NCBI GenBank assembly: GCA_015061665.1
Contig: SUWC01000003.1
Coordinates: forward strand, 23,292-87,291
Direction: 5' to 3'
Length of the DNA stretch: 64,000 nt
From: Lentisphaerota bacterium
Lineage (GTDB): Bacteria > Verrucomicrobiota > Kiritimatiellia > RFP12 > UBA1067
Shown: piece after piece, positions 1,874-32,605 of the stretch
Position numbering within the stretch: position 1 is the stretch's first letter
How the letters are laid out: every line of letters begins with the position of its first letter
Program-made: the position numbers and the translations under genes
The notes under the pieces: model-generated
Database searches by the model: none
What the model was told of the DNA's origin: nothing
The model's input: only the letters and a program-made list of their open reading frames with translations

Positions 1874-4800
1874 TCAGGACGCGTGCCACTCCTGCAGCGA
1901 GCGAGGAACGGAACCTTTCGCCGACGCGTCGGCCGCGATTCCACGGACAGCCTCGGCGAATCCTGCAAGCGTGGTCGTGACCGGCACGCCTGCGGCAACC
2001 GCCGCCGCGCGGATCTTCACGCTGTCGTGCGCAGCGCTCTCGCCCTCCTCGCGCGTGTTGACGATCCACTTCACCTTGCCGCGCTTTATCAAGTCGATTG
2101 TGTTGGGGCTCCCGAGCGGAATCTTGTAGAGCGCATTCGACTCGACGCCCGCGCGCCAGAGCGCGGTGGAAGTTCCGCGCGTCGCCCATATCTCGTAGCC
2201 CATCGCATCGAGCCGCTTCGCAAGTTCGACGACTTCGCCCTTGTCTTCGTCGCGAACGCAAAGGACGATTCCGCCCTGGCCCGGATGCGGCAGCGGACTC
2301 CCCGCCGCGGCCTGGCTCTTGTAGTACGCCGTCGCCGCGTCGACTCCGAACGACATCACCTCGCCCGTCGACTTCATCTCCGGCGTGAGCGTGATGTCCG
2401 CGCCAGGGAACTTCACGAACGGGAAGACCGCCTCCTTGGCGCAGAAATACGGTTTGGTGGTTTGGTGGTTAGGTAGTTGGGTGGGCAGTTGCTCGCCCGC
2501 CATCACCCGCGACGCCACGCCCGCAAGCGACCAGCCGACAGCCTTCGAGACGAACGGCACGGTGCGCGACGCGCGTGGATTCACCTCGATCATCCATACC
2601 TCGTTGTCTTTAACAGCCAACTGGATATTCATAAGTCCGACGACGTGCAACCGCTCCGCGAAAGTGCGGGCGATGCGTTCGACTTCGGCGATCGTCTCTT
2701 TCGATAGCGATACCGGCGGCGTAACCGCCGCGGCGTCGCCAGAGTGGCAGCCCGCCGCCTCGATGTGCTCGAGAATCGCGCCGACGACTGTCGTCTCTCC
2801 ATCCGACACGCAGTCGACGTCGAGTTCGATGGCATTGGTGAGGAACTTGTCGATGAGGATCGGACGCCCCTCCGATATCTTCACCGCCTCCTCGACGTAT
2901 TCCCTGAGGCGCTCCTCGTGGTAGACGATCGCCATGCCGCGTCCTCCAAGGACGAACGACGGACGCACGAGGACGGGATAGCCGATCTCCTGCGCGATCT
3001 TTAGCGCGTCGTCAACCGTGTGCGCGATGCCGCTCGGCGGCTGCTTCACGCCGACTTCATTCACAAGCGCGCGGAAGAAGTCGCGGTCCTCCGCAAGCGC
3101 GATGTCTTTGGGCGAAGTGCCGAGGATGTTTACGCCCGCCGCTTCGAGTTTTTCCGCGAGGTTGAGCGGGGTCTGTCCGCCGAACTGCACAATCGCGCCG
3201 TCGCACTTCTCGCGCTCGTAGATCTCCATCACGTCCTCGAATGTAAGCGGCTCGAAGTAGAGCTTGTCCGAAGTGTCGTAGTCGGTCGAGACAGTCTCTG
3301 GATTTGAGTTCACCATCACGACCTCGATGCCCATCTTGCGCAGCGCGAACGCGGCGTGGCAGCAGCACCAGTCGAACTCGATGCCCTGTCCGATGCGGTT
3401 CGGCCCCCCGCCCAAGACCATGATCTTCTTTTTGACAGGATTTACAGGATTCACAAGATTAGAAGAATTCGTTGGATGTGGTAATCTTGTAAATCTTGTT
3501 AATCCTGTCGAAAAACCGTAGCAGCTGTAGTAATACGGTGTCTTGGCCTCGAACTCGCCGGCGCAGGTGTCGACTTCGCCGAACTCGGGCCTTATGCCGA
3601 GGGCGAGGCGATTGTTCCGCACCGTAATCTCGTCGGAGCCGATCGCCGCGGCGATTTCCTTGTCGCTGAAGCCGAACACCTTGGCTTGGCGAAGGAGCAA
3701 GCTTGCTTCACGGTCTTTTTCGACAGGATTAACAAGATTTACATGATTATCTTTACTCATCAATCCTGTTAATCCTGTAAATCCTGTCAAAAGATTCTTC
3801 TGGCTCGCCAAGAACTTTCTGAACGCTTCGATTTCTTCGAGCTGCGCCCTGAACCACGGATCGAAGCTCGCGACGTCGTGTCCGGCGAGCGGCGCCTCGA
3901 GCGAGCGGACTGCCTTGAGGTATGCCTGCTTGAAGGTGCGTCCGATTGCCATCGCCTCGCCCACGGACTTCATTTGCGTGCCGAGGCGCGTGTCCGCTCC
4001 GTGGAACTTCTCGAAGGTGAAGCGCGGCACCTTGACTACGACATAGTCGAGCGCCGGCTCGAAGCAGGCGGGCGTAACTTCGGTAATGTCGTTCTTCAGC
4101 TCGTCGAGAGTATAGCCCACGGCGAGAAGGGCGGCGATCTTCGCGATCGGGAAGCCCGTCGCCTTCGAGGCGAGCGCGGAGGAGCGCGAGACGCGTGGAT
4201 TCATCTCGATGATGATGCGCCGCCCCGTCTTCGGATTGACGGCCCACTGGACGTTCGAGCCGCCCGTCGCAATTCCGATCGCCTCCAGGACGCGGATCGA
4301 GTCGTCGCGCATCGCCTGGTATTCGCGGTCGGTAAGTGTCTGTATCGGCGCGACGGTTATCGAGTCGCCGGTATGGACGCCCATCGGATCCATGTTCTCG
4401 ATGGAGCAGACGATTACGGCGTTTCCCGCCTTGTCGCGCATCACTTCCATCTCGAATTCCTTCCAGCCGATGAGAGACTCCTCGACAAGGACCTCGTGGT
4501 TGAGCGACGCCTCGAGCCCGCGCGAGACGATTTCGCGGAACTCGTCTGCGTCGTGCGCGATTCCGCCGCCAGTTCCGCCGAGGGTGAAGCCAGGACGGAT
4601 GATTAGCGGCCATGTGCCGATATCCTTTGCGATCGCTTCCGACTCTTCGAGCGAATGTGCGCTCCCCGATTTAGGCATGTCAAGTCCGAGCTTGCCCATC
4701 GCCGCCTTGAAGAGATTGCGGTCCTCCGCACGGGCTATCGCGTCAGCATCCGCGCCGATCATCTCGACGCCGCATTCTTCGAGGACGCCGGAGCGCTTCA

Positions 4801-5101
4801 GCTCCATCGCGAGGTTGAGCGCGGTCTGTCCGCCGAGCGTCGGGAGGAGCGCGTCCGGCTTTTCCTTTCGGATGATCGCCGAAACCGAATCGACGGTAAG
4901 CGGCTCGATGTATGTCGCCTCGGCCATTTCCGGATCGGTCATCACCGTCGCGGGGTTGGAGTTCACGAGGACGATTTCGTATCCTTCCTTGCGCAGGGCC
5001 TTCACGGCCTGGCAGCCGGAGTAGTCGAACTCGCATCCCTGTCCGATGACGATCGGACCCGATCCGATGACAAGTATCTTCTTCAAATCAGTGCGTTTCA
5101 T
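1874..5101 (-). CDS. carB: Carbamoyl-phosphate synthase large subunit, with 3 in-frame repeat insertions
   Basis: Motifs [54 protein letters not shown]. Start MKRTDLKK at 5101. Confidence 0.98.
3429..3515. repeat. Family A palindrome, in frame in carB
   Basis: TTTTTGACAGGATTTACAGGATTCACAAGATT...AATCTTGTAAATCTTGTTAATCCTGTCGAAAAA. Confidence 0.95.
3716..3792. repeat. Family A palindrome, in frame in carB
   Basis: Encodes [25 protein letters not shown]. Confidence 0.95.
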
Positions 5102-6923
5102 TTTTCTTTTCCTTAAGTGCGGTCGAGACGAGGCCGACAAACAGAGGATGCGGCGCGGTCGGGCGGGATTTGAACTCGGGGTGGAACTGGCATGCGATGA
5201 AGTAAGGATGCTTCGACTGCGGAAGTTCTACAATTTCGACGAGCTTGCCGTCGGGGGATGTTCCGCTGACCACCAGCCCCGCGGCCTCAAGCGCCTTCCT
5301 TGCCTCGCTGTCGTATGCGAGTTCGTAGCGGTGGCGATGTCGTTCGGAGATAACACCTGCGGAGTTGTTTTGTTTGACAGGATTTACAGGATTAACAGGA
5401 TTGAGTGTCTGGGGGATATCCCCAGGTAATCCTGTAAATCTTGTTAATCCTGTCAAAACTATTTTATAGAGCTTTGCGGCTAGGGTGCCTTTCTTGAGAA
5501 TGCATGGATAGGCGCCCAGGCGCATCGTGCCGCCTTTCTGCGTGATGCCGCGCTGCTCCTCCATAAGGTCGATGACGGGGTGCGTCGTACGTTCGTCGAA
5601 CTCCGTCGAGTTGGCGTCCTTCCATCCGAGCACGTCGCGCGCGTATTCGATCACCGTGCACTGCATCCCGAGGCAGATGCCGAGAAATGGGATCTTGTGC
5701 TCGCGCGCGTACTTTATCGCGGCGATCTTTCCCTCGACGCCGCGCGCACCGAATCCACCAGGCACCAAAATGCCGTCGATATCCCTCAGCGGATTGTTTT
5801 TGACAGGATTAACAAGATTTACATGATTAGAAGACTTCGCCAATCCTGTTAATCCTGTAAATCCTGTCTCCAACTCCTCGGATTCAACAGGAACAACTTC
5901 TACTTTGCAGTCCTTTGCCATGCCTGCGTGCTGGAGCGCTTCGTGCACCGACTTGTAGGCGTCGCGGATGGCGATGTACTTTCCGACGAGCGCGATGCGG
6001 CACTTCTTCTTCGGCTGCGTCGCCTTTCGCACGAGAGTGTCCCACACCGTGTGCTTTATGGGCCAGATGTCGAGGTGGAGATGGCGCAGAACCTGCTCGT
6101 CGAGCCCCTGCTTCCGGAGCTCCCGCGGCACGGCGTAAACGGAGTCCGTCACGTCCTTCTCCTCGATGACGCATTCGCGCTTCACGTTGCAGAAGAGCGC
6201 GAGCTTCTGGAGATGCTCCTCCGGAATCGTCATCTCGGTGCGGCAGACGAGGATGTCGGGAATGATGCCGATGTTGCGCAACTGTCCGACGGAATGCTGC
6301 GACGGTTTTGTCTTGAGCTCGCCCGCCGCCTTGAGATACGGGACGAGCGTGAGGTGCACGAAGCACGCGTTCTCGGATCCGACCTCGAAGCGGAACTGCC
6401 GCGCCGCCTCGAGGAAGGGGAGCGACTCGATGTCGCCGGAAACGCCGCCTATCTCGCAGAGGACGATGTCGGGAGGGTCGGGCTCTGTCCCGACCATGGC
6501 CGACACGGAGGTCGGCCCTCCCATGCCCGCGCTCCTGATCGCCGCCTTGATCTCGTCCGTTATGTGCGGCACGACCTGCACCGTTCCGCCGAGGTATCCA
6601 CCTGCGCGTTCGCGCGCGAGGACTGCGGAGTAGATGCGCCCTGAGGTGTAGTTCGACGCCTTCGTGCAGGTGACGCCGGCGAACCGCTCGTAGTGTCCGA
6701 GATCGAGGTCCGTCTCCGCGCCGTCGTCCGTCACGAACACCTCGCCGTGCTGGTACGGGGACATCGTGCCGGGGTCGACGTTGAGGTATGGGTCGAGCTT
6801 CTGCATGAAGACCTTGTAGCCGCGCGACTTGAGGAGAAGCGCGAGCGAGGCCGAGGTGATTCCCTTGCCGAGCGAGCTTACGACGCCGCCGGTGATGAAA
6901 ACGTATTTGACTTGTTTTTTCAT
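5088..6923 (-). CDS. pyrG: CTP synthase, with 3 in-frame repeat insertions
   Basis: Motifs [40 protein letters not shown] at 6923 overlaps the carA stop. Confidence 0.98.
5373..5458. repeat. Family A palindrome, in frame in pyrG
   Basis: Encodes [28 protein letters not shown]. Confidence 0.95.
5797..5868. repeat. Family A palindrome, in frame in pyrG
   Basis: Encodes [23 protein letters not shown]. Confidence 0.95.
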
Positions 6924-8200
6924 GGCTTGCTGGTTGTGGCTAGTGCCATTTCCCTGAATTGGCGGAAGAGGTAGTTCGAGTCGTGCGGGCCGGGGCAGGA
7001 CTCGGGGTGGTACTGCACCGAGAAGGCGGGGAGAGTCTTGTGGCGGATGCCCTCGATCGAATTGTCGTTGAGGTTTACGTGCGTCACTTCCAGGCAGTCC
7101 GGAACCGACTCGGGCACGACGGCGAAGTTGTGGTTCTGGCTGGTGATCTCGACCTTGCCCGTCGCGAGGTTCTTCACCGGATGGTTGCAGCCGTGGTGCC
7201 CGAACTTGAGCCGCGCCGTCTTCGCGCCGCATGCGAGCGCGAGCAGCTGATGCCCAAGGCAGATTCCCATGATGGGGATGATTCTGTTTTTGACAGGATT
7301 TACAGGATTAACAGAATTTGGGTTTTGAGGGGTTGCCCCAGATAATCCTGTAAATCTTGTTAATCCTGTCGAAAAAGACCTTAGTCCGAGGAACTTCTGA
7401 ATATTCTCGATTGCGTATGTCACTGCCGCGGGATCGGCCGGACCGTTGGATAGAAAGACGCCGTCGGGATTCATCGCGAGGACATCCTCGGCGGGAGTCT
7501 TCGCTGGAACGACCGTGACCTTTGCCCACGACGCGAGCGAGCGGAGGATGTTTGTCTTTACGCCGAAGTCGTAGCAGACGATGTGGGGCAAGGACTTCGG
7601 ACTTAAGGCTTCAGACTTCTGTTTTCGAAGTCCGAGGTCCGAAGTCTGAAGTCTAAACTCGTAACTCTTCTCGCAAGTCACCTTGGCGGCGTAGTCCTGT
7701 CCGTCAAGACCCTCCCATTCTCGCGCCTTGGCTATTGCCTCATCTTCCCCATTCCCCGTTCCCCATTCCCCAACACACAAATACGCCTTCCGGTTGCCGT
7801 GCTCGCGGAGGTGCAGCGTGAGCGCGCGCGTGTCCACGCCGTAGATGCCGGGGATGCCATTCTCGCGGAGATATTCGTCGAGGCTCTTTTCGCTGCGCCA
7901 GTTGCTGGGCTCGGTCAGATCGGCTATTACTAGTCCAGACAGAAAAAGGGCGCGTCTTTCAGTGTCCGCGCTGTTTACTCCGTAGTTGCCGACTTCGGCT
8001 GTCGTGAGGGTGACGAACTGTCCGGCGTAGGATGGGTCGGTAAGTATCTCCTGGTAGCCCGTCATGCCGGTGTTGAACACGACCTCGCCAAGAGTGTCCT
8101 TCTTCGCGCCGAACGCGACGCCGTGGAAGACCGTTCCATCGTCCAGTGCAAGGAACGCCGCCCTTTCGCGCTCCGCTTTCCATTTCTTCTCGTAGTTCAT
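6920..8200 (-). CDS. carA: Carbamoyl-phosphate synthase small subunit, with 3 in-frame repeat insertions
   Basis: Motifs [47 protein letters not shown]. Confidence 0.98.
7287..7376. repeat. Family A palindrome, in frame in carA
   Basis: Encodes [29 protein letters not shown]. Confidence 0.95.
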
Positions 8201-8215
8201 TTAATTTGCTCCATA

Positions 8216-10165
8216 TTAGTAAGATCTTTCATTCCTCTTGTCCAGGTAGTTCTCTAGCGCCTTGTGGAGAACCTTGTATCCGCCCGGCGTCGGGTAGTCG
8301 CCGGTGAAGTACCAGTCGCCGATGGAACTTGAAAGGACTTCTGACTTCGGACTTCCGACTTCCATTGCCGAGGTCGGATGTCCGAAGCCCGAAGTCAGGC
8401 ACCTTCTGAGATCCTCGACGGTCTGATACACCACTTTCACCTCTGCCTTCATCCCGGGAGGGGTGAGAAGGCGCGCGATTTCCGCACAGTGCTGCTCCTC
8501 GGTAAAGCGAGAATAGAGGGGAGCAAGTGGATTCAACTGGGGACGGCGTGCGCGGCGCGCCCGCCCTACCAGTGCTTCGCTCAATTCCCGCTCCCCGCTC
8601 CCCGTTCCCCGTTCCCCATTCATAAGATTGACGAGGGCGCGGAACGCGACGAGCTCGCCGAGCGTGGACATGTCGATGCCGTAGCAGTCGGGGTAGCGGA
8701 TGGGCGGCGCGGAGGATGCGATGACGATGCGCTTCGGTCCAAGCCGATCGAGCATCGGGAGAATCGCGTTCTTCATCGTGTTGCCGCGCACGATCGAATC
8801 GTCAAGGACGACGAGCGTGTCATTCTCCTTGACGAGTCCGTACGTGACGTCGTAGACGTGCTTGTAGAACTCGCGCCGCGCCGCGGCGTCCGCGATGAAC
8901 GTGCGGAACTTCGCGTCCTTCACTATCACCTCGCCGAAGCGGGGGATGCTTTTGACAGGATTTACAGGATTTACAAGATTTTTGGGGTCTGGGGGCATGC
9001 CCCCAGATAATCTTGTCAATCCTGTTAATCCTGTCGCAAAAACACGGGAGAAAAGTTCTTCCAGCAATCCGTGGAAGGCGATGCGCGCGGAGTTGGGGAT
9101 GTAGCTGAAGAAGATGTCCTCCATCGTCGCGTCCGCCGCCTCGAGTATGCGCGGCAGGAGCGCCGCGCCGAGCGCCTTGCGCTCGCGGTGGATGTCGGCG
9201 TCGTTCGCGCGGGAGAAATAAATTCTCTCGAACGAGCAAGGGCGAGGACGAGCATTGATGTCCGAACTCAGTTCGGACATCTGGACTTCGCCATCCGGCG
9301 AGACGACAAGCACCTCGCCCGGCGGCAGCTCCTTCACCGCCTCGGGCGGGACGTCGAACGCGGCCTGTATCGCGGGGCGCTCGCTCGCGACGACTACGAC
9401 GCGCTCGTCGATGTAGTAGAAGCCCGGCCTTATGCCGTTCGGGTCGCGCGTCGCGAACGCCCAGCCGTCCCCCGTCGCGCCGCAGAGCGTCCATGCGCCG
9501 TCGGCGTTCTTCAATGCATTTGCAAGGGCGTCGGCAACGGGAGGGCCGGGCTCTGTCCCGGCCGCGGCCGACACGGAGGTCGGCCCTCCCAGTTCCTTCG
9601 CGATCAGCTCGCAGATGAGGTAGCCGTCGGCCCTGCTCGTCGGAAACGATCCGTGTCGCGCGTAGTCGTCGAATAGCTCGTGCGCGTTCGTTAGGTTGAA
9701 GTTGCCTGCGAGAAGGAGCGTATGGGATAGCTCGCTTGACTCGTGCACGAACGGATGACAGAACGCCACGTCGTTTTTACCGAACGTGGCGTAGCGAAGA
9801 TGGCCGAGGAAAATCCTCTCAAATCTTGTGTGGACAGGATTTACAAGATTTACAGGATTTTGGGGGGCTGATGCTGTGCTCACAGATAATCCTGTCAATC
9901 CTGTCTGAACCTTACACCGCTTCGTCAGCATCCCCAACAGATCTGCAAGAGGTGTAGCGGAGGCGGACTTGGCGATCCAGTATGGCGTTTTGCCTGGCTC
10001 GGGATTGGCCGAGAGTATCGCCGCGCCCGCACCGTCCTGTCCGCGGTTGTGTTGTTTTTCCAGTAGAAGCGAAAGCTTCGTTCCGCCAAAGTCCGCCGTA
10101 GACGACGGTGGCTTTCTAAGGACCACCATCGCCACGGCGCATTCATGCTTTAGTTCGTCTGACAT
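8216..10165 (-). CDS. purF: Amidophosphoribosyltransferase (PurF family), with 6 in-frame repeat insertions
   Basis: MSDELKHEC propeptide/Ntn Cys, QHNRGQDGAG, GHLRYAT, CSFERIYF, PRT motif VLDDSIVRGNT, PDCYGIDM, FTGDYP. Confidence 0.9.
   Translation of the reverse strand: MSDELKHECAVAMVVLRKPPSSTADFGGTKLSLLLEKQHNRGQDGAGAAILSANPEPGKTPYWIAKSASATPLADLLGMLTKRCKVQTGLTGLSVSTASAPQNPVNLVNPVHTRFERIFLGHLRYATFGKNDVAFCHPFVHESSELSHTLLLAGNFNLTNAHELFDDYARHGSFPTSRADGYLICELIAKELGGPTSVSAAAGTEPGPPVADALANALKNADGAWTLCGATGDGWAFATRDPNGIRPGFYYIDERVVVVASERPAIQAAFDVPPEAVKELPPGEVLVVSPDGEVQMSELSSDINARPRPCSFERIYFSRANDADIHRERKALGAALLPRILEAADATMEDIFFSYIPNSARIAFHGLLEELFSRVFATGLTGLTRLSGGMPPDPKNLVNPVNPVKSIPRFGEVIVKDAKFRTFIADAAARREFYKHVYDVTYGLVKENDTLVVLDDSIVRGNTMKNAILPMLDRLGPKRIVIASSAPPIRYPDCYGIDMSTLGELVAFRALVNLMNGERGTGSGERELSEALVGRARRARRPQLNPLAPLYSRFTEEQHCAEIARLLTPPGMKAEVKVVYQTVEDLRRCLTSGFGHPTSAMEVGSPKSEVLSSSIGDWYFTGDYPTPGGYKVLHKALENYLDKRNERSY
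8950..9036. repeat. Family A palindrome, in frame in purF
   Basis: Encodes [28 protein letters not shown]. Confidence 0.95.
9833..9905. repeat. Family A palindrome, in frame in purF
   Basis: Encodes [24 protein letters not shown]. Confidence 0.93.
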
Positions 10166-10181
10166 TTCACGTCACTAACCA

Positions 10182-12311: not shown

Positions 12312-12352
12312 TGTCGCGTTTTCCTTTCCGGGGCTTTCCCCGCAGAGCATGT

Positions 12353-12369
12353 AGCACACTCCGTGCCAA
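12353..12369 (-). promoter_or_regulatory. Sigma54 (-24/-12) promoter of the glnA-purF-carA-pyrG-carB run
   Basis: TTGGCACGGAGTGTGCT on the minus strand, with exact GG-N10-GC spacing, about 40 bp above the glnA ATG. Confidence 0.8.
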
Positions 12370-12614
12370 AGGCGTCCAAACGCAGCTTCAACGGAAATAT
12401 ATCGTTTTCTCCACCCCATCCTGACATTTTTTTGTCGAAAAGCAGGCAGTTCGTTACAAAAATTGTAATTGGCTGGTGGGATGCTGCCATAGACTCAAGC
12501 TATGGTTCGTCGAGCATGTTTCCGATTACCACTTCACCCGCCGGATTTGCGATAATGTCTGTGTTGTCCCCGCTCCACAAATCCCCACCCGGAGCGGGGC
12601 AACCTAACTGAACC

Positions 12615-16525: not shown

Positions 16526-16538
16526 ACAACAGAGAGTC

Positions 16539-16606
16539 TTAGACAGGATTCACAGGATTTACAAGATTTTAGGACAATCCTGTTAATCATGTAAATCCTG
16601 TCAAAA
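16539..16606. repeat. Family A palindrome, intergenic between glnK and amtB
   Basis: GACAGGATTCACAGGATTTACAAGATT...AATCCTGTTAATCATGTAAATCCTGTC. Confidence 0.95.
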
Positions 16607-16624
16607 AGAAGAAAGAACGAAAAC

Positions 16625-22724: not shown

Positions 22725-22772
22725 TACAAAATCAAAAGCAAGACAACTGTCCACTAGAGATGGAGGCAAGCT

Positions 22773-23918: not shown

Positions 23919-24015
23919 GCTTTTCCTATTCCCGTTTGCGTTTATTTCCGATTACCAGTTGCTTCCTGCGATGTGCGATAATATTGCCGTTGAACCAAAA
24001 GAAAGGAACGCAACC

Positions 24016-24897: not shown

Positions 24898-24917
24898 CCC
24901 TATCATCGGAGAGAGAA

Positions 24918-25790
24918 ATGAACGACAGGCAGGAACTGAACCGCAATCTCGCGCAAATGCTCAAGGGCGGCGTGATAATGGACGTCACGACGCCCGAGCA
25001 GGCGAAGATCGCCGAGCAGGCCGGCGCATGCGCGGTGATGGCTCTTGAACGCATACCCGCCGACATACGTGCGGCGGGAGGCGTCTCGCGCATGAGCGAC
25101 CCTGCGATGATCAAGGGCATACAGGCGGCGGTGTCGATTCCGGTTATGGCGAAGTGCCGCATCGGACACATCGCCGAGGCGCGCATCCTGGAAGCGATCG
25201 AAATCGACTACATCGACGAGTCGGAGGTGCTTTCCCCCGCCGACGACGTGCGCCACATCGACAAGAACAAGTTCAGCGTTCCGTTCGTCTGCGGCGCACG
25301 CGACCTCGGCGAGGCTCTTCGCCGCATCGGGGAGGGCGCGACGATGATCCGCACGAAAGGCGAACCGGGGACGGGCGACGTCGTGCAGGCCGTTAGGCAC
25401 ATGCGCAAGATGCAGAGCGAGATTCGCCGCGTCGTGTCGCTCCGCGAGGACGAGCTCTACGAGGCGGCGAAGGAACTTGCCGCGCCGCTCGACCTCGTCA
25501 GGTTCGTACACGAGAACGGCAAGCTCCCCGTCGTGAACTTCGCGGCAGGCGGAGTCGCGACGCCCGCGGACGCCGCGCTCATGATGGAGCTGGGGGCTGA
25601 AGGCGTGTTCGTGGGCTCGGGAATCTTCAAGTCGGGCGATCCCGCGAAGCGCGCTTCCGCAATCGTGCAGGCCGTCACGAACTGGCAGGACTCGAAGCTT
25701 CTCGCGAAGCTCTCCGAGAACCTCGGCCCCGCGATGGTAGGCATCAACGCCGACGAAATCGAAACCATCATGGAAGAGCGAGGGAAGTAG
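24918..25790 (+). CDS. pdxS: Pyridoxal 5'-phosphate synthase lyase subunit
   Basis: Motifs [41 protein letters not shown]. Confidence 0.97.
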
Positions 25791-25791
25791 C

Positions 25792-25866
25792 TTTTTGACA
25801 GGATTTACATGATTTACAGGATTGTTGGTGGTTCATACTAATCTTGTGAATCCTGTTAATCCTGTC
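25792..25866. repeat. Family A palindrome, intergenic between pdxS and pdxT
   Basis: TTTTTGACAGGATTTACATGATTTACAGGATT...AATCTTGTGAATCCTGTTAATCCTGTC. Confidence 0.95.
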
Positions 25867-25885
25867 TGAAAACTGGTATGACGAG

Positions 25886-26566: not shown

Positions 26567-27946
26567 ATGCAACGAATACACGACATCTACCGTCCGACAG
26601 AAGAACGTGCGCACGACTGGCGCGAAGTCGAGCGCATGCTGACCGAAGACGAACTGAAAGCGCAGACTACGCGCTGCATGAACTGCGGGCAGCCCTTCTG
26701 CCACGCCTACGGGTGTCCGCTCGGCAACCGCGTCCCAGACCAGAACCGCGCAGTGGCCCAGGGCAACTGGCGCCGCGCGTACGAGCTTCTCGCGGCTAAC
26801 TCGGACTTCCCGGAATTCACGTCGCGCATCTGCCCAGCGCTTTGCGAGGCGAGCTGCGTTCATGGACTCGACGAAGAGTCGGTTATGGTGCGCCAGTCGG
26901 AGAAGCGCATCATCGAGACAGCCTTCGCCAACGGATGGGTCGTGCCGCGTCCGCCGGAAAAGGAGAACGGCAAGTCCGTCGCCGTTATCGGCGCGGGGCC
27001 GGCCGGACTTTCCGCCGCCGTGACGCTGCGCCGTCGCGGATTTGCGGTTACGGTCTACGAACGCCGGGCCAACATCGGCGGACTCCTCCGCTACGGCATT
27101 CCATGCTTCAAGCTCGACAAGTCGCTCATCGACCGCAGACGTGCCGTGATGGAAGCGGAAGGCATCCGCTTCGTCACCGGATGCGAAGTCGGCAACGACG
27201 TCTCGGCGGAATGGCTCGCCAAGCGCCACGACGCCGTTGTCGTCGCGATTGGAACGCCCGCCGCCCGCGATCTCAAGATACCTGGACGAGAACTCGGCGG
27301 CATACATCTCGCCCTGGAGCTGCTGGAAGGGCAAAACCGCTTCCTTACGGGAGAAATCGCGGAGCCGCCGATCAGCGCGAAGGGAAAGAACGTTCTGGTT
27401 ATAGGCGGAGGCGACACAGGCTCGGACTGCGTAGGCACGTCAATCCGCCAGGGAGCGGCGAGCGTGACGCAGATCGAGATAATGCCGAGGCCGCCGGACG
27501 TGCGCGACGCCTCCACGCCGTGGCCGCTCTGGCCGTACATGCTGCGCACGAGCTCCAGCCACAAGGAGGGATGCGAAAGGCGCTGGAACTTGAACTCGCT
27601 GCGGTTCATCAGTAGGGACGCCGTTCCATCGGCGTTCGCATGCGTCACGGGTGTTGAAGTCGAGACTGTTGAATGGGAGCTCTCCCCGGAGGGTCGTCCG
27701 ATGAAGTTCCAAAGCGTGCCGAACTCGAAGGAAGTCATCAAGGCCGACCTCGTATTCCTCGCGATGGGTTTCACCGGCGTGCCGGCGGACAACCCTATCG
27801 TCAAGCAACTCAAACTCGCGCAGACTCCGCGAACCGCCTTGGTGCAGGACTCTTCGCGAAACATCTACTGCGCAGGCGACTGCGCATCGGGAGCATCCCT
27901 CGTCGTGAGGGCGCTCGCCAGCGGAAAGAACATACCCCTTAACTGA
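26567..27946 (+). CDS. gltD: Glutamate synthase small subunit
   Basis: Motifs RCMNCGQPFC, FPEFTSRICPALCE, GAGPAG, IGGGDTGSDC. Confidence 0.96.
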   Translation: MQRIHDIYRPTEERAHDWREVERMLTEDELKAQTTRCMNCGQPFCHAYGCPLGNRVPDQNRAVAQGNWRRAYELLAANSDFPEFTSRICPALCEASCVHGLDEESVMVRQSEKRIIETAFANGWVVPRPPEKENGKSVAVIGAGPAGLSAAVTLRRRGFAVTVYERRANIGGLLRYGIPCFKLDKSLIDRRRAVMEAEGIRFVTGCEVGNDVSAEWLAKRHDAVVVAIGTPAARDLKIPGRELGGIHLALELLEGQNRFLTGEIAEPPISAKGKNVLVIGGGDTGSDCVGTSIRQGAASVTQIEIMPRPPDVRDASTPWPLWPYMLRTSSSHKEGCERRWNLNSLRFISRDAVPSAFACVTGVEVETVEWELSPEGRPMKFQSVPNSKEVIKADLVFLAMGFTGVPADNPIVKQLKLAQTPRTALVQDSSRNIYCAGDCASGASLVVRALASGKNIPLN

Positions 27947-27958: not shown

Positions 27959-30900
27959 ATGAACCAGCAAGCCAAATACGAACAGCAAGGGCTCTACAGG
28001 AGCGAATACGAACACGATGCGTGCGGCGTCGGAATGGTCGCAAACCTCTCCGGCGAGGCGAGCCACGACATTGTCCAGAAGGGAATGACGATTCTCAAGC
28101 GCCTGATGCACCGCGGCGCGACGGGGAACGATCCGGAGACTGGCGACGGCGCAGGGCTCCTCATGAAGATTCCGCATGCGTTCTTCAGGAAGGCTTTAGC
28201 CGCAAAGAACGCAAAGAACGAAGAGCCATTCGCCGTCGCGATGATCTTCGGCGGAGAAGGCGAAGAGGACAAGATCGAGGCGGCCGTCAAGGGCGAGGGG
28301 TGCAAGGTCCTCGCATGGCGCGACGTTCCGACAAACCCCGACGCGATCGGACGCGACGCGCGCAGCGTAATGCCGCGGATAAGGCAGGTGTTCATCGGGA
28401 CTTCAGACTTCGGACCCAAGACTTCTGCTGCTGACGTCCAATGTCTGAAGTCCGAAGTCTCTTCCTTCGAACTTCAACTCTACGTCATCAGACGCCTGAT
28501 AGAGAAAAACACCAAGAACACATACGTCTGCTCCTGCTCGTCGCGCACCGTCGTCTACAAGGGGCTTCTTCTTGCGACTCAGATCGAGAAGTTCTACCCC
28601 GACCTCTCCGACCCCGACTTCGTCTCGCCGTTTGCAATAGTGCACCAGCGCTACTCGACGAACACCTTCCCGTCGTGGGAGCTCGCGCACCCCTTCCGCG
28701 CAATCGCGCACAACGGCGAGATCAACGCGCTCAAGGGCAACCTCAACGCTCTTGCGGCGCGAGAGCCGTCGCTCAGGTGGCCGGAAGCGGGGCGGCCGGA
28801 GTCCGCCCCCTACCAGGTGGACCTTAAGAAGATTCTGCCGCTGATCGACAAGGGGCAGTCCGACTCGGCTTCGCTGGACAACATCTTCGAGCTCCTGGTA
28901 GCGGCGGGACGCGACGCGCCGCACGCGATGATGATGCTCGTCCCGCAGGCGTGGGGCAGGAAATACCACATGGGACACGACGTGCGCGCGTTCTACGAGT
29001 ACCACTCCGCGCTGATGGAGCCTTGGGACGGACCGGCCGCGCTCGCCTTCACCGACGGCATCAGCCTCGGTGCCGCCCTCGACCGCAACGGGTTGCGCCC
29101 TGCCAGGTGGACGCTTACAAGGGACGGCCTTTTCGTCCTCGCGTCGGAAACAGGCGTGCTTGACATCGCGCCCGAAAACATAGCGCGCCACGGCAGGCTG
29201 AAGCCCGGTTCGCTTCTCTGGCTCGACCTCGCGAAGCACCGCCTGATGGAGGACGCCGAGCTCAAGACGTACTGCGCGCGCCGCAGACCATACCGCCGCT
29301 GGGTGAAGGAGAACCACATCCCCGTCACGGGACTATTCACCGAAATCGTGCCGTCGAAATTGGGGAATGGGGAATGGGGAATGGGGAATGGGATTGCACG
29401 CGAACAAAACCGCTTTGGCTGGACGCTGGAGGACATCGAGCTAATTCTCCGCCCGATGGCGGAAACGGGACACGAACCGGTTGGCGCGATGGGAAACGAC
29501 GCCGCGCTTGCGGCGCTCTCACGCAAGCCGCGCATTCTCTTCGACTACTTCCACCAGCTCTTCGCTCAGGTCACGAACCCGCCGATCGATCCGATCCGCG
29601 AGGAACTCGTGATGTCGATCATGACCTACATCGGAAACGAGGGGAACATACTCGCCGAGACTCCGGCGCACGCTCGTCTCGTGAAGATGACGCGACCGGT
29701 CCTGACCGACGACGAACTCGCGCGACTCAGGAACATCCCCGATTTCCCTGCGAAGACGCTTTCAATGTGCGTCGGGGAATGGGAAACTGGGAATGGGGAA
29801 CCGGGGTGGCTGAAGGCCGCGCTTGACAGGCTTGCCGCCGACGCGATTGAAGCAGTGAAGGAAGGCGCGAAGATAGTTATCCTTTCCGATAGGAAATTGC
29901 TTTCGCCGCTGGGAGATAAGGAGACTAGGAGTTTGGGAGATTCTGAGGAAAGATCTCCAAGTCTCCCAAACTCCAAAACTCCAAGTAGCGAAAGCAAAAA
30001 GCGAATCCCGTCCCTCCTCGCGGTTGCCGCGGTGAACAAGGCGCTCGTCGAAGCGGGGGCGCGTCCGTCAGTCGGCATCATCGTTGAATCCGGCGAGGTG
30101 CGCGAAGTGCACCACTTCGCCGTCCTGCTCGGCTTCGGCGCAACGGCCGTCAACCCGTGGCTTGCCCTTGCGACAGTATCCGAGATCGGGAAGTCCGACA
30201 CAGTGAAGGCAGCTGCGAACTACGTGTCCGCAGTCTGCAAGGGCCTGATGAAGATCATGTCGAAGATGGGCATCTCGACACTGCGCTCCTACCGCTCGGC
30301 GCGCATCTTCGAGGCCGTCGGCCTCGGTCCGAAGATCGTCGCCGAGTATTTCACCGGCGTCACATCGCCCGTGGGCGGACTGGAGCTGGAGGATATCGAG
30401 AAGATAGCTGGAGTGAAAAGTTGGAGTTCGAGAAATGAAGAAAACAACTCCACTCTCGAACTCCAACTCGAAACTCCAACTCTCCCTCCCGGCGGCGAGT
30501 ATCGCTTCCGCAAGGGCGGCGAGGAGCATCTCTGGTCTCCGCAGCGGCTCGTCGACTTCCGCGAGTCCGTGCGCCACAATGACTACGCGCGCTTCCACCG
30601 CTATACCGACGACATTGACTCCAATAGCCATGTCACATTGAGATCTCAACTGGAATTTAAGAGTTCGACAGGATTTACAGGATTGGAAAGCGTAAACAAT
30701 CCTGATAATCCTGTAAATCCTGTCAAAAACAACATCGAGTCCGTCGACTCCATAGTGAAGCATTTCGTTGGCGGGGCGATGTCGCTCGGCTCGCTTTCCC
30801 CTGAGGCGCACGAGACGATCGCGCTCGCGCTGAACGGACTCAGCACGATGTCCAACTCCGGCGAAGGCGGCGAAAACCCAGAGCGCTTCGGCACGGAAAA

Positions 30901-32605
30901 GAACAGCGCCATCAAGCAGGTGGCGTCCGGACGCTTCGGCGTGACGATCGAGTACCTTCGCAGCGCAAAGGACCTCCAGATCAAGCTCGCGCAGGGCGCG
31001 AAGCCGGGCGAGGGCGGACAGCTCCCCGCGCACAAGGTAAACGAGTTCGTCGCGCGCCTGAGGCATGCGAAGCCCGGCACGACGCTGATCTCGCCTCCGC
31101 CGCACCACGACATCTACTCGATCGAGGACCTCGCGCAACTGATATACGACCTCAAGTGCGCGAACCCCGCCGCGCGCGTCTCGGTGAAGCTTGTTTCCGA
31201 AGCGGGCGTGGGAACGATCGCGGCAGGCGTCGCGAAGGCGCACGCGGACGTAATCGTGATATCCGGCTTCGACGGCGGTACGGGCGCCGCTCCGCTTACT
31301 TCGATGAAGCACGCGGGACTTCCATGGGAAGTCGGTCTTGCCGAGGCGCATCAGACGCTCGTAAAGAACAACCTGCGCGACCGCGTGAAGCTCCAGGTCG
31401 ACGGACAGCTCCGCACCGGACGCGACATCGTCATCGCCGCGATGCTCGGCGCGGACGAGTTCGCGTTCGGCACCTCGATGCTCGTCGCGCTCGGGTGCGT
31501 GCAGTGCCGCAACTGCAACCTCAACTGCTGCCCCGTCGGAATCGCGACGCAGAAGGAGGAGCTTCGCTGCAAATTCGCAGGAAAGCCAGAACATCTGCAG
31601 TCCTACTTCCGCTTCCTCGCCGAGGAGGTTCGCGAGCATCTCGCCGCGCTGGGACTGAAGTCGCTCGCCGAGGCACGCGGACGCGCCGATCTCCTGAAGG
31701 CGAAGGACGGCTCGAGATTTGACTTTGCCGCGCTGCTGGCAAAGGAAGGGACTTCAGACCTCGGACTTCAGACTTCAGTTGTCGAAAGTCCGAAGTCCGA
31801 GGTCTCGTGGCTTCAAAACTACGACTTCCGCGAGCTAATACCTGCGGTCGAGAAAGGCGAGACGCGACTCGAGCGCACAATCTCCAACAGCGACCGCTCC
31901 GTCGGCGCTGCGCTCTCGGGCTGGCTTGTCGCCAATCGTTGCTCCGATGGACAAGTTCCCAGTCCTGACGGTCGAACTGCGTTCGACCTATCCATAGCCT
32001 TCGCCGGCGTGGCCGGCCAGTCGTTCGGCGCTTTCCTCGCCAAGGGCGTAACCTTCGACCTCTCGGGCGAAGCCAACGACTACATCGGCAAGTCGCTCTC
32101 CGGCGGCGTGATAACGATAAGGCCGCCGAAAGGCGCGGCGTTTCCGCCAGAGGGCAACGTCATCGCGGGCAATGTGGTCGCCTACGGCGCGACGTCGGGC
32201 GGGATATTCGTCAACGGCCTCGCAGGCGAGCGCTTCGGCATCAGGAATTCCGGCGCGACGCTCGTCGCAGAGGGCGTTGGAGACCACGGCTGCGAATACA
32301 TGACGGGCGGCAAGGTCGTGATCATCGGCCCTGTCGGCGTCAACTTCGCGGCTGGCATGACTGGCGGCGTAGCGTACGTCTACGACGAAAAGGCGACGCT
32401 CGACCTCAACTGCAACCTGGATTCAGTCGATCTCTTCCCCGTGGAGGAGAACTCCGATGACGAAGCGGCGCTCATCGCCCTTCTGAAGGAGCACTTCGTC
32501 CGCACAAGCTCTCCCAAGGCGAAGCGGATACTCGAAGACTGGGACACCGAGCGCCCGAAATTCGCCAAGGTTCTCCCTATCGCAACCGGGAGAAGTATGG
32601 TATAA
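27959..32605 (+). CDS. gltB: Glutamate synthase large subunit, with at least 8 in-frame repeat insertions
   Basis: Motifs EHDACGVG, HQRYSTNTFPSW, FAQVTNPPIDPIRE, QGAKPGEGGQLP, GCEYMTGG. Confidence 0.98.
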   Translation: MNQQAKYEQQGLYRSEYEHDACGVGMVANLSGEASHDIVQKGMTILKRLMHRGATGNDPETGDGAGLLMKIPHAFFRKALAAKNAKNEEPFAVAMIFGGEGEEDKIEAAVKGEGCKVLAWRDVPTNPDAIGRDARSVMPRIRQVFIGTSDFGPKTSAADVQCLKSEVSSFELQLYVIRRLIEKNTKNTYVCSCSSRTVVYKGLLLATQIEKFYPDLSDPDFVSPFAIVHQRYSTNTFPSWELAHPFRAIAHNGEINALKGNLNALAAREPSLRWPEAGRPESAPYQVDLKKILPLIDKGQSDSASLDNIFELLVAAGRDAPHAMMMLVPQAWGRKYHMGHDVRAFYEYHSALMEPWDGPAALAFTDGISLGAALDRNGLRPARWTLTRDGLFVLASETGVLDIAPENIARHGRLKPGSLLWLDLAKHRLMEDAELKTYCARRRPYRRWVKENHIPVTGLFTEIVPSKLGNGEWGMGNGIAREQNRFGWTLEDIELILRPMAETGHEPVGAMGNDAALAALSRKPRILFDYFHQLFAQVTNPPIDPIREELVMSIMTYIGNEGNILAETPAHARLVKMTRPVLTDDELARLRNIPDFPAKTLSMCVGEWETGNGEPGWLKAALDRLAADAIEAVKEGAKIVILSDRKLLSPLGDKETRSLGDSEERSPSLPNSKTPSSESKKRIPSLLAVAAVNKALVEAGARPSVGIIVESGEVREVHHFAVLLGFGATAVNPWLALATVSEIGKSDTVKAAANYVSAVCKGLMKIMSKMGISTLRSYRSARIFEAVGLGPKIVAEYFTGVTSPVGGLELEDIEKIAGVKSWSSRNEENNSTLELQLETPTLPPGGEYRFRKGGEEHLWSPQRLVDFRESVRHNDYARFHRYTDDIDSNSHVTLRSQLEFKSSTGFTGLESVNNPDNPVNPVKNNIESVDSIVKHFVGGAMSLGSLSPEAHETIALALNGLSTMSNSGEGGENPERFGTEKNSAIKQVASGRFGVTIEYLRSAKDLQIKLAQGAKPGEGGQLPAHKVNEFVARLRHAKPGTTLISPPPHHDIYSIEDLAQLIYDLKCANPAARVSVKLVSEAGVGTIAAGVAKAHADVIVISGFDGGTGAAPLTSMKHAGLPWEVGLAEAHQTLVKNNLRDRVKLQVDGQLRTGRDIVIAAMLGADEFAFGTSMLVALGCVQCRNCNLNCCPVGIATQKEELRCKFAGKPEHLQSYFRFLAEEVREHLAALGLKSLAEARGRADLLKAKDGSRFDFAALLAKEGTSDLGLQTSVVESPKSEVSWLQNYDFRELIPAVEKGETRLERTISNSDRSVGAALSGWLVANRCSDGQVPSPDGRTAFDLSIAFAGVAGQSFGAFLAKGVTFDLSGEANDYIGKSLSGGVITIRPPKGAAFPPEGNVIAGNVVAYGATSGGIFVNGLAGERFGIRNSGATLVAEGVGDHGCEYMTGGKVVIIGPVGVNFAAGMTGGVAYVYDEKATLDLNCNLDSVDLFPVEENSDDEAALIALLKEHFVRTSSPKAKRILEDWDTERPKFAKVLPIATGRSMV
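30664..30729. repeat. Family A palindrome, in frame in gltB
   Basis: Encodes STGFTGLESVNNPDNPVNPVK. Confidence 0.93.

Follow-up and report, generated by a model that had tools for sequence, protein, structure and literature searches.

The window, i.e., the whole stretch of 64,000 nucleotides that was analysed, contains the genes carB, pyrG, carA and purF, which are located on the minus strand together with a gene for a type III glutamine synthetase (GS-III), and the genes gltD and gltB on the plus strand (Table 1). Six of these genes carry short repeats that are inserted in frame: three inserts are found in carB (one of them, at most a remnant), three in pyrG, three in carA, five to six in purF, eight to ten in gltB and one in gltD. 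The total of about 24 to 26 inserts belongs to at least six repeat families, and all host reading frames are open across them. Most inserts are hairpins, the arms of which consist of tandem units of 7 to 10 nt. The arms of family A contain two to three copies of ACAGGATTN and an inverted partner, and the element is translated into TG[LF]TGL...NPVNPVK. Arms of GACTTCR heptamers and of GGAGAYN-type heptamers characterize families B and E, respectively; family C consists of GGGGAAY heptamers, family D is a GC-rich compound hairpin, and families F and G are built of CGCAAAG and GAGTT-type units. RNA folding of 18 elements revealed stems of about -22 to -51 kcal/mol with z-scores between -2.4 and -9.8; 16 of them were beaten by none of 200 shuffled sequences, and the other two were matched by three and four shuffles. 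The possible carB remnant is present at a single locus in this genome, and PNHQTT-type peptides resembling it occupy insert loops in purF, gltB and gltD of relatives. The family A site of carA is also filled in a Kiritimatiellia metagenome-assembled genome (locus L075).

Table 1. Host genes and repeat elements of the window (kcal/mol and z, RNA folding).
Feature	Position	Strand	Remarks
carB (carbamoyl-phosphate synthase large chain)	1874..5140	-	Pfam CPSase_L_D2/D1, MGS
Possible remnant insert in carB	2441..2485	-	alignment block at aa 881; coordinates derived by hand
Family A palindrome in carB	3420..3517	-	directly N-terminal to second synthetase half; -34 kcal/mol, z -7.9
Family A palindrome in carB	3708..3796	-	orthologue alignment; z -6.4
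pyrG (CTP synthase)	5088..6920	-	Pfam CTP_synth_N, GATase
Family A palindrome with nested inner hairpin, pyrG site 2	5362..5462	-	z -8.7
Family A palindrome, pyrG site 1	5788..5876	-	alignment
Family D GC-rich compound hairpin in pyrG	6470..6529	-	repeat search and alignment
carA (CPS small chain, amidotransferase)	6920..8200	-	Pfam
Family A palindrome in carA	7278..7378	-	immediately ahead of GICLGHQ nucleophile strand
Family B palindrome in carA	7587..7667	-	repeat search, alignment, RNA fold
Family C array in carA	7743..7773	-	translates GEWGTGNGE
purF (amidophosphoribosyltransferase-like)	8216..10165	-	Pfam GATase_6/7, weak
Family B palindrome in purF	8330..8397	-	z -5.9
Family C array in purF	about 8597..8640	-	translates NGERGTGSGERE
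Family A palindrome with nested inner hairpin in purF	8940..9043	-	-51 kcal/mol, z -9.8
Family D hairpin in purF	9532..9591	-	common to 1 of 9 relatives
Family A palindrome in purF, degenerate	9819..9904	-	z -2.4
Glutamine synthetase type III (GS-III)	10182..12419	-	Pfam; same operon, internal control
Family A palindrome, intergenic, P-II gene / amtB	16528..16610	+	
Family A palindrome, intergenic, ORFs 24918-25790 / 25886-26440	25783..25874	+	
gltD	26567..27946	+	Pfam
Small hairpin insert in gltD	27571..27641	+	about 6 aa longer than relatives; 4 loci genome-wide
gltB (glutamate synthase large chain)	27959..32605	+	Pfam
Family F single arm in gltB	28195..28216	+	CGCAAAG units
Family B palindrome in gltB	28393..28460	+	alignment, RNA fold
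Family C array in gltB	29348..29393	+	translates GNGEWGMGNG
Family C array in gltB	29774..29814	+	translates GEWETGNGEPG
Family E palindrome in gltB	29897..29997	+	-51.5 kcal/mol, z -8.2
Family G hairpin in gltB	30419..30468	+	z -7.1
Family A palindrome in gltB	30653..30732	+	z -8.4
Family B palindrome in gltB	31744..31805	+	z -5.1

Insert boundaries were defined by alignment with orthologues from 6 to 11 genomes of the same genus, and each insert corresponds to a gap in the most compact orthologue. The alignments comprise carB orthologues from seven genus genomes, 11 genus sequences of pyrG (mean column identity of PyrG, 80%), ten sequences of carA, ten of purF, whose products range from 518 to 674 aa, and nine of gltB. 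Two of the gltB sequences stem from other families of the order, and the gltB inserts are absent from both. In carB, pyrG, carA, purF and gltB, the same loops hold different families, or nothing, in different species. At pyrG site 2, for instance, the element is present in three of the 11 genus sequences, replaced by a different family in one and absent from seven, and at site 1 other species carry other families or a single arm. Some inserts of pyrG, carB and carA are common to several species. The insert boundaries are fuzzy, and no target-site duplication was seen when alleles with and without an insert were compared at two sites of pyrG. Alignments, open frames and hairpin folds bear out a preliminary description of this DNA, which had reported about 24 in-frame inserts of several families.

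The inserts are also found in independent sequence data. Contigs of run X1, which may be the source sample, span seven inserts (5535-5924, 7529-7787, 8099-8441 and 9506-10007) with 0 differences, and parts of the stretch are found in runs from 14 studies. Run X6, which stems from another study and contains a related strain, carries most inserts; in this strain, the pyrG insert at 5349-5464 is absent, with 14 other letters in its place, and pyrG site 1 is shorter by one 9-nt unit at 5842. Contigs from the RNA libraries X15 and X16 lack 63 nt of purF at 8330-8397. X1 and X6 speak against the concern, raised at the outset, that the inserts could be an assembly artefact. A second concern was that clean paralogues exist elsewhere. 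For pyrG, carA and gltB, the search revealed no further copy in the genome. Contig C36 encodes a carB paralogue (48% identity) that is devoid of family A inserts, and contig C166 a second, partial purF (64% identity), in which the same loops are occupied by other inserts.

Gene-less copies land or arise all over the genome, which is available as a 177-contig assembly with an estimated completeness of 92%. BLAST searches identified about 30 loci of family A, about 55 of family C, 15 to 18 of family D and 12 of family F; contig C166 is possibly derived from a co-binned relative, and some genome-wide counts may therefore mix two organisms. Family A has 34 arm loci and 16 full palindromes, ten of which lie in the window, and 22 of the 46 family C arrays are located in coding sequence. 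Tandem arrays with a period of 7 are by far the most frequent (79 versus 0 to 10 for periods 5, 6 and 8 to 12). A strict census yielded 59 elements in frame in coding sequence, 144 in non-coding sequence and 28 at contig edges, compared to 62% coding for random positions in the same test; these coding and non-coding counts are approximate, because the gene calls are based on a home-made codon-usage score. Nine of the 59 in-frame elements are found between 1874 and 32605, i.e., in 0.9% of the genome, and both this value and the accumulation of family A palindromes in the window agree with the uneven spread that had been proposed. The enrichment is real but limited to certain genes and does not follow a theme. 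In family A, one frame meets TAA in both arms if the spacer base is an A (CAG GAT TAA, ATC CTG TAA). In the coding copies examined, the second arm is always read as NPV and the first arm as TG[LF], with a single exception on contig C157. The frame pattern looks filtered rather than designed.

The preliminary description had associated the inserts with glutamine and nitrogen metabolism, an idea that several internal controls fail to support. GS-III, which is encoded in the same operon, has a repeat insert in none of the seven species aligned; its only two indels are 5 to 6 aa long, and neither is a repeat insert in this genome. The TrpG-TrpD amidotransferase contains no insert and shows no length change compared to all four full-length orthologues, three from this genus and one from a different family of the order; four more genus genomes, in which trpG and trpD are separate genes, agree in this respect. 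Nor does an insert occur in any of five further genes of the amidotransferase family that were checked in this genome. Inserts are also absent from the amtB and P-II genes, and no strong element is present in the coding regions from 12534 to 26440, as had been stated for the intervening genes. The suggested link to sigma-54 is weak: seven promoter matches were found versus 3.7 expected, a number equalled by 7 of 100 shuffles, and the sole perfect -24/-12 match (16154-16168) precedes glnB-amtB. No evidence was found for nitrogen regulation by the inserts or for a peptide-writing system.

Beyond the genus, a family A pattern with 24 specified bases has at least 120 matches, which are distributed over many phyla. 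Among the 120 loci listed, 44 are short palindromes and nine are arm pairs that are separated by 120 to 3000 nt; four of the nine pairs enclose a GxxExxY gene (Verrucomicrobiota, Acidobacteriota in two cases and Kiritimatiellota). In many phyla, the 9-mer arm is identical in every letter and flanks GxxExxY genes. Outside the lineage, family A is nearly always intergenic, an open frame spanning 5 of 41 evaluable palindromes, four of which belong to Kiritimatiellia relatives. No transposase recurs near the arms among the 120 loci listed, and none lies between separated arms in this genome. The repeats match no Rfam family, no rRNA family reaches the gathering score in the window, and no paper containing these repeat sequences was found, in line with the initial impression that they had not been described for this lineage.

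The arm families of the inserts also flank small gene-carrying cassettes, and this link provides a new lead to the origin of the inserts. In this genome, all three PF13366 genes and both PF05635 genes sit between inverted arms of such units. According to NCBIfam, the cassette proteins belong to TIGR04256 (GxxExxY) and TIGR02436 (four helix bundle), respectively. The cassette gene on contig C108 is flanked by GGGGAAY arrays of family C and the GxxExxY gene on contig C78 by CGCAAAG units of family F; no GxxExxY gene of this genome has family A arms, which are found on five PF13366 genes of the genus. Across the genus, arms are present at 19 of 24 evaluable PF13366 genes, or at 18 of 23 since one case is an artefact of N letters, and at 20 of 28 evaluable PF05635 genes, compared to 5% of 200 random controls. 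Family G-like units flank four-helix-bundle genes in relatives, and 16 of 28 PF05635 genes of the phylum have arms, 12 of which have a period of 7. The two types of cassettes differ in their arms: those with a GxxExxY gene have units of 8 to 10 nt, including family A, and the four-helix-bundle or 23S rRNA intervening-sequence (IVS) cassettes have heptamers, including family C. In a tree of GxxExxY proteins, which covers 19 of the 26 extracted proteins with the seven that lack an assigned arm type omitted, the arm type changes three times, which is the minimum possible (shuffled mean 8.9; 0 of 200 shuffles as low); this association may only reflect the shared ancestry of near-copies. The four-helix-bundle protein is no enzyme, and the cassette genes may therefore be cargo rather than the mobilising machinery.

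On balance, the inserts are probably gene-less copies of several selfish hairpin-repeat families, similar to Rickettsia palindromic elements (RPE), whose arms flank the cassettes and whose presence in genes is filtered by selection. The arms of each element are inverted relative to each other and consist of units of 7-10 nt in tandem, and in the cassettes the same arm families enclose one gene in the 'loop'. This gene encodes either a GxxExxY protein with a PD-(D/E)XK nuclease fold or a four-helix-bundle protein of the '23S rRNA intervening-sequence' type. Copying might proceed via nuclease-initiated repair or template switching at the hairpins. Within genes, the survivors would be in-frame, stop-free copies in tolerant loops, and such a filter would make the inserts look 'designed' to preserve the frame. 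Only a few loops of carB, pyrG, carA, purF and gltB are likely to tolerate inserts, whereby putative tolerant surface loops are recognized solely as alignment gaps, and occupied loops may become landing pads, which together would explain why different families occupy the same loops across species. The inserts would be translated as additional loop peptides. The selection filter alone leaves unexplained that many families gather in five genes, and no movement of an element was observed.

Alternatively, the repeats could have grown in situ by slippage and fold-back template switching at fragile, tolerant sites, followed by gene conversion and without any transposition. Tandem units would form first and palindromes next, and gene conversion from other copies would provide the family sequence. 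This scenario fits the single arm and the full palindrome found at one pyrG site in different species, the unit missing from the X6 strain, the fuzzy boundaries, the lack of target-site duplications at the two pyrG sites and the repeated use of the same loops. However, dozens of unlinked loci, and genomes of many phyla, share identical arms of 24 bases, which requires copying between loci or genomes. Furthermore, the two arms of family A do not pair at their spacer bases, and neither arm is thus a simple fold-back copy of its partner. Arms and cassette genes also travel together. We consider growth in situ unlikely.

It is also rather improbable that the inserts are functional elements, i.e., mRNA hairpins or peptide loops that tune the enzymes, for example via RNase III cleavage, and that are positively selected in nitrogen-assimilation genes. 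No particular peptide or hairpin is conserved, as the same loops hold unrelated families or nothing, and GS-III, amtB, P-II, TrpGD and the other amidotransferases do without inserts; in addition, family A is rarely spanned by an open frame outside the lineage. A function would be in agreement with the long, stable stems within coding sequence, with the sharing of some inserts by several species and with the two intergenic family A copies in nitrogen gene clusters (Table 1). Moreover, RNase III cleaves hairpin elements of 23S rRNA that carry a gene of the same type (PMC4990558).

The preliminary description had further suggested a templated-synthesis system, which could consist of a reverse transcriptase and an Avd-like helper as in diversity-generating retroelements. 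The only hint of such a system is the resemblance of the four-helix-bundle cassette protein to the Avd model of these retroelements, which lies far below threshold (E 4.6e-4; 20.5 bits versus a cut-off of 80). That the sequence in a given loop is rewritten from species to species would also fit this idea. On the other hand, the inserts represent copies of repeat families that are dispersed in the genome instead of variants of one template, and a pairing of template and variable repeats was not seen; a dedicated synthesis system is considered very improbable. Assembly errors or dead genes with clean paralogues, which the fragmented assembly, the carB paralogue and the partial purF might have indicated, are largely refuted and deserve next to no credence in view of the X1 and X6 contigs, the orthologues in 7 to 11 other genomes that carry inserts at the same sites, the open frames and highly conserved alignments, the missing second copies of pyrG, carA and gltB and the distinct inserts of the C166 purF.

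If the inserts are indeed selfish hairpin repeats, the RPE phenomenon of selfish DNA within protein-coding genes would extend to a free-living gut lineage, and at an unusual density, as many as about ten inserts being found in a single enzyme. It would have a testable origin in tiny cassettes, the gene of which encodes either a PD-(D/E)XK-fold protein or a four-helix bundle resembling Avd. The phenomenon would thereby be connected with the 23S rRNA intervening sequences, which have long lacked an explanation, and with two 'hypothetical' protein families that are very common. The sister species represent a natural experiment, with different peptides in the same loops, and the hot loops would mark insertion-tolerant sites in CarA, CarB, PyrG, PurF and GltB. 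The repeats also inflate protein lengths and may confuse the annotation and binning of metagenome-assembled genomes. More tentatively, and with doubts that outweigh our confidence, it can be speculated that PF13366 and PF05635 genes in inverted short-tandem arrays form a widespread, undescribed class of minimal mobile hairpin cassettes of bacteria and archaea, of which the 23S rRNA IVS is one special case and whose gene-less derivatives feed the dispersed heptamer and nonamer palindromes that, in this genus, invade core enzymes. In that case, peptide loops added to core enzymes would turn over between species, and the cross-phylum ACAGGATT nonamer arm would mark the recognition site of a conserved protein, perhaps the GxxExxY nuclease.

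Several known systems share features with the elements described here. Dispersed heptanucleotide tandem arrays, such as the 79 arrays of period 7, are reminiscent of the STRR heptamers of cyanobacteria and the small dispersed repeats of Nostoc, for which Elhai et al. (2008) reportedly described tandem heptanucleotide arrays throughout the genome and very small hairpin repeats that enter other repeats and sometimes genes. The phylum and the unit sequences differ, and we know of no description that links STRR to GxxExxY or four-helix-bundle cassettes or to an in-frame crowding of core enzymes. MITEs and REP/REPIN-RAYT elements (PMC10969869, PMC3116915) are likewise short, non-autonomous, hairpin-forming dispersed repeats with many copies, some of them within genes. 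Terminal inverted repeats are common to MITEs and to the elements studied; an assignment to MITEs was rejected, as no target-site duplication was seen (two pyrG sites only) and the search for a transposase-bearing parent insertion sequence with matching ends found none in this genome or near the 120 family A loci. REP/REPIN-RAYT was rejected as well: the genome contains five weak PF01797 (Y1) matches, whose flanks hold repeats other than families A to G, with at most a single one-off motif match to any of these families.

The resemblance to RPE proposed in the preliminary description is confirmed, as palindromic repeats are present in frame in protein-coding genes and the host open reading frame is retained. 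RPE are multi-family palindromic repeats of about 150 nt, which are found in frame in unrelated metabolic genes (Ogata et al. 2000, as summarized in PMC10969869). According to this account, too, the insertions preserve the host frame and contribute a peptide typical of their family, and they are not associated with any known transposase. Compared to the same account, the elements described here are shorter (50 to 100 nt) and built of tandem 7-10 nt units, the likeness being one of description. Whereas RPE reside in an obligate intracellular alphaproteobacterium, the host is here a free-living gut lineage of the Kiritimatiellia, whose nearest named relatives are Kiritimatiellia metagenome-assembled genomes. 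Furthermore, up to six to ten elements occur in one gene, sister species fill the same loops with different families, and the arms are common to gene-carrying cassettes.

The 23S rRNA IVS (PMC4990558, PMC11270868) have terminal inverted repeats that form a long stem with a PF05635-family gene in the loop; short gene-less versions exist, few sites in essential, conserved genes are tolerated, and the sporadic distribution suggests horizontal transfer. Long-stem PF05635 cassettes, gene-less forms, few tolerated sites in essential genes and a sporadic distribution are also found here, and a PF05635-family open reading frame lies within stem-forming terminal inverted repeats in 2 of 2 cases in the genome, 20 of 28 in the genus and 16 of 28 in the phylum. 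In contrast to IVS, which are located in a helix of 23S or 16S rRNA, the elements studied sit in protein-coding genes and intergenic DNA: the cassettes are intergenic, and the gene-less forms within protein-coding genes would have to be translated instead of being excised. In addition, the arms are composed of short units repeated in tandem, and a second type of cassette carries a gene with the GxxExxY nuclease fold.

The assembly comprises 3.44 Mb on 177 contigs, with the window on contig C152, and the identities of the host genes are confirmed by Pfam. Repeat finding, translation combined with local GC content, a 14-mer census and a hairpin scan revealed short foreign segments within these enzyme genes, which were sorted into families A to G; an 11-mer census was dominated by GC-rich words, and de novo single-linkage clustering, which merged 454 of 694 repeat loci into one cluster, was not used. 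The arms of family A contain the nonamer ACAGGATTN two or three times and are followed by a loop and inverted arms; the element is translated as TG[LF]TGL...NPVNPVK, and family C is formed by arrays of the heptamer GGGGAAY, translated as G[TM]GNGE[RW]G. Family B has arms of GACTTCR heptamers, family D is a GC-rich compound hairpin, family E possesses GGAGAYN-type arms, and families F and G are built of CGCAAAG and GAGTT-type units, respectively. Protein alignments with 6-10 same-genus genomes per gene locate the segments where the most compact orthologue has gaps, and the resulting tally (see the table) agrees with the figure of about 24 inserts in the preliminary description. Its claim of in-frame insertion from several families holds as well. 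All host genes keep an open reading frame. The observation of in-frame inserts is confirmed.

Positions of genes and other features in the window, with the number of inserts per host gene
Feature	Position	Strand	Inserts	Remarks
carB	1874-5140	-	3 (one a remnant only)	Pfam; part of operon-like row
pyrG	5088-6920	-	3	Pfam; part of operon-like row
carA	6920-8200	-	3	Pfam; part of operon-like row
purF	8216-10165	-	5-6	Pfam; part of operon-like row
GS type III	10182-12419	-		Pfam; part of operon-like row
Sigma-54 site, one mismatch	12354-12368	-		5' of GS type III
Sigma-54 site, perfect -24/-12 consensus	16154-16168	+		just 5' of P-II gene and amtB
P-II gene	16172-16525
gltD	26567-27946	+	1	Pfam
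gltB	27959-32605	+	8-10	Pfam
TrpG-TrpD	39611-41200
Other repeat family	44700-45465			unrelated to A-G
Other repeat family	51027-51401			unrelated to A-G
Other repeat family	59041-59132			unrelated to A-G; 92-nt palindrome
Other repeat family	59721-59812			unrelated to A-G
Large RHS-repeat protein gene	61349-64000	-		extends past window end; lower-GC region

Predicted RNA folds of 18 elements had z-scores of -2.4 to -9.8, and 16 of them were beaten by 0 of 200 shuffles. In the folds of family A (e.g., 5362-5462 and 8940-9043), every ninth position, the spacer between the ACAGGATT cores, is unpaired, so neither arm is a fold-back copy of the other; several copies contain a nested hairpin (CTGGGGG..CCCCCAG) inside the loop. 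The conserved 8-nt core of family A resembles a sequence that a protein would read. A scan of the window against Rfam gave nothing at the gathering score and, under an E-value threshold, solely chance-level matches to microRNA hairpins far under the cut-offs; Rfam contains no family that matches the inserts. An AlphaFold2 prediction of PyrG from an alignment of 11 sequences had a mean pLDDT of 37.6 and was unusable as a model.

An assembly artefact or dead genes, both of which had been considered earlier, could explain such segments, but contigs of two sequencing runs and the conservation of the orthologues argue against them. Portions of the window are present in runs from 14 studies. Contigs of run X1, which is possibly the source sample, cover seven inserts with 0 differences, and contigs of run X6, from another study, represent a related strain that has most of the inserts. 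In the X6 strain, the pyrG insert at 5349-5464 is missing, with 14 other letters in its place, and one nonamer fewer is present at 5842. Outside the inserts, the genus orthologues are strongly conserved (mean column identity of PyrG, 80%). A search of this genome for a second pyrG, carA or gltB found none. A carB paralogue without family A inserts is located on contig C36 (38528-41767, 48% amino acid identity), and a second, partial purF with 64% identity lies on contig C166 (12.9 kb) and has, in the same loops, different inserts of its own. C166 also carries the start of a gltD with 83% identity (C166 coordinates 45-1142 and 12668-12862 for purF/gltD) and either comes from a co-binned relative or represents a paralogous stretch. 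Contigs of the bovine-gut RNA libraries X15 and X16, which are only 90-98% like the window, mostly end at insert sites or differ there. At one point these contigs join 8318 to 8382 and thereby skip 63 nt of the family B hairpin in purF; the same 63 nt are retained in the DNA contigs of X1 and X6. The join could be a strain variant or a result of RNA processing.

A strict census of the genome yielded 231 elements, of which 59 are in frame in coding sequence, 144 lie in non-coding DNA and 28 at the edges of contigs; 51 genes are affected, with gltB first in rank. The stretch 1874-32605, which makes up 0.9% of the genome, contains 9 of the 59 in-frame elements where arithmetic predicts about 0.5, a comparison that rests on home-made gene calls and on a window picked because of its inserts. 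The spread is uneven. BLAST located about 30 loci of family A, about 55 of family C, 15-18 of family D and about 12 of family F. Family A is represented by 34 arm loci and 16 full palindromes, 10 of which lie within the window. Tandem arrays of heptamers characterize this genome: there are 79 arrays of period 7 versus 0-10 each for periods 5, 6 and 8-12. GGGGAAY arrays account for 46 loci, and 20 of the 22 coding arrays are read on the G-rich strand.

The glutamine and nitrogen theme of the preliminary description does not explain this enrichment. The type III glutamine synthetase (GS-III) gene, located in the same operon as the carB-purF row, is insert-free in 7/7 species, and TrpG-TrpD shows no length change compared with four of four full-length orthologues (three from this genus, one from another family of the order) or with the split trpG and trpD of four further genus genomes. 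Five other amidotransferase-family genes in this genome are element-free. The proposed link to sigma-54 is weak and not significant: a perfect consensus precedes the P-II gene and a site with one mismatch precedes GS-III, but the total of matches is not above chance. Since GS-III shares the operon and is nevertheless clean, neither local hopping nor transcription level suffices as the only cause of the pattern.

Across the genus, orthologue alignments show that inserts appear and disappear and that the family occupying a given loop differs from one species to the next. At pyrG site 1, where this genome has family A, a CACAAAG-type palindrome is found in two species, a CGCGGAG-type palindrome in one, GGAGAAC-type units in one, and a single arm only, of CGCAAAG or CGCAGAG units, in four. 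The same turnover of families occurs at the carB junction preceding the second synthetase half, in the carA loop preceding the catalytic GICLGHQ strand, at six purF sites and at about ten gltB sites. These loops are free of inserts in two gltB orthologues that come from other families within the order. Among named records, Kiritimatiellia/Kiritimatiellae MAGs of animal-gut origin are the nearest, with 84-92% DNA identity over the matching parts. In one relative (locus L015, G003:C3), about 3.4 kb of extra DNA is located between purF (3582-5603) and carA (9024-10304), which adjoin in the other genomes.

At least 120 stretches (loci L025-L144) from many bacterial phyla match a family A pattern of 24 specified bases, for which a chance expectation of about 0.004 in 596 Gb was calculated. 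The hosts include Proteobacteria, Chloroflexota, Acidobacteriota, Verrucomicrobiota, Bacteroidota, Firmicutes, Chlamydiota and one archaeal (Methanoperedens) MAG, and the arm GACAGGATTNACANGATTNACAGGATT is conserved without a single changed letter in these at least 120 stretches (window example, 5373-5457). Within the genus, the arm is present in 66 of 101 genomes and a reversed control pattern in 0. In most cases the element is a palindrome between genes, flanked by a T-run and an A-run; the 120 matches listed comprise 44 short palindromes and nine arm pairs that are 120-3000 nt apart, four of which enclose a GxxExxY gene. An open frame runs across 5 of 41 evaluable palindromes, and four of these five affect the same genes in relatives from Kiritimatiellia. 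As palindromes are rarely frame-spanned outside these relatives, in-frame invasion is characteristic of this lineage, although the element as such has a very wide distribution. Single family A arms often stand immediately 5' of a ribosome-binding site and its start codon (...ACAGGATTAAGAAAGGAG..ATG), e.g., on contigs C16 (1783-4718), C113 (1638-6962) and C121 (5361-9842) of this genome (G000) and at loci L066, L071, L077 and L080; the genes 3' of such arms encode small exported proteins or belong to polysaccharide loci of Kiritimatiellia and Lentisphaerae MAGs. This arrangement gives the impression that expression signals lie in the arm or next to it.

In this genome, all PF13366 (GxxExxY, TIGR04256) genes and all PF05635 (four helix bundle, TIGR02436) genes are located between inverted arms composed of tandem units of the same kinds. 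PF05635/TIGR02436 is the family to which the ORFs of 23S rRNA intervening sequences (IVS) belong. The flanks are GGGGAAY arrays for the cassette gene on contig C108, CGCAAAG units on C78 and TTGCCAA heptamers on C33. In the genus, arms with units of 8-10 nt flank 19 of 24 evaluable PF13366 genes, or 18 of 23 after removal of one artefact of N letters, and five genes have family A arms. For PF05635, arms, mostly of period 7, are found at 20 of 28 genus genes versus 5% of 200 random controls, and at 16 of 28 genes of the phylum (period 7 in 12). When arm types were mapped onto the GxxExxY protein tree, three label changes were needed, the minimum possible (shuffled mean 8.9, 0/200 as low), although relatedness inflates this test and 7 of 26 proteins without an assigned arm type were left out. 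This association of arms with cassette genes is the main new lead on the origin of the repeats, and the putative link from the inserts to IVS-like mini-cassettes is promising.

In this genome, the ORFs that separate family A arms include no transposase and are ordinary genes, for example glycosyltransferases and an epimerase, and clustering of all ORFs at the 120 family A loci in other phyla revealed no recurrent transposase. An integron attC reading was rejected on architecture only, with single arms inverted on both sides of the gene. The Y1 transposase-like genes of this genome associate with repeats other than families A to G. The words of the 92-nt palindrome occur about 30 times in the genome, and its sequence also flanks a gene on contig C24 that resembles Y1 transposases; this pattern points to a REP/RAYT-like system of the classical type.

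As the data show, the inserts represent copies of hairpin families dispersed in the genome and differ among species and among strains. They share their arms with small one-gene cassettes, and they concentrate in particular loops of particular proteins. The gene-less copies may derive from the cassettes or move by the same means, and selection would purge intragenic copies unless the frame is kept, stops are absent and the loop is tolerant. Where the spacer base of family A is A, a TAA stop arises in both arms in one of the reading frames; in the coding copies listed, the second arm always reads NPV, and the first reads TG[LF] in all but the copy on contig C157. Loops once occupied may act as landing pads, which would account for families replacing one another at fixed sites. 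A comparison of filled and empty alleles at two pyrG sites revealed no target-site duplication. The inserts are filed as in-frame palindromes resembling Rickettsia palindromic elements (RPE); the earlier interpretation is partly supported, in that the real, in-frame, multi-family and RPE-like nature stands, and the glutamine/nitrogen theme and the sigma-54 link find no support.

Heptamer STRR repeats and small dispersed repeats of Nostoc were reportedly described by Elhai in 2008. The family A strings had no match in a literature search, and the available portions of the literature on RPE, MITE, IVS and REPIN, whose supplements may bear on the point, contain no link between the cassette genes and tandem-repeat arms or in-frame inserts. 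PDDEXK_3 is listed as a family of unknown function with multiple transfers (PMC3424549). The behaviour of the inserts matches that of RPE (PMC10969869). The architecture of the cassettes matches that of the 23S rRNA IVS with an S23p ORF, whose stems are cleaved by RNase III and whose origin is still called unclear (PMC4990558; PMC11270868).
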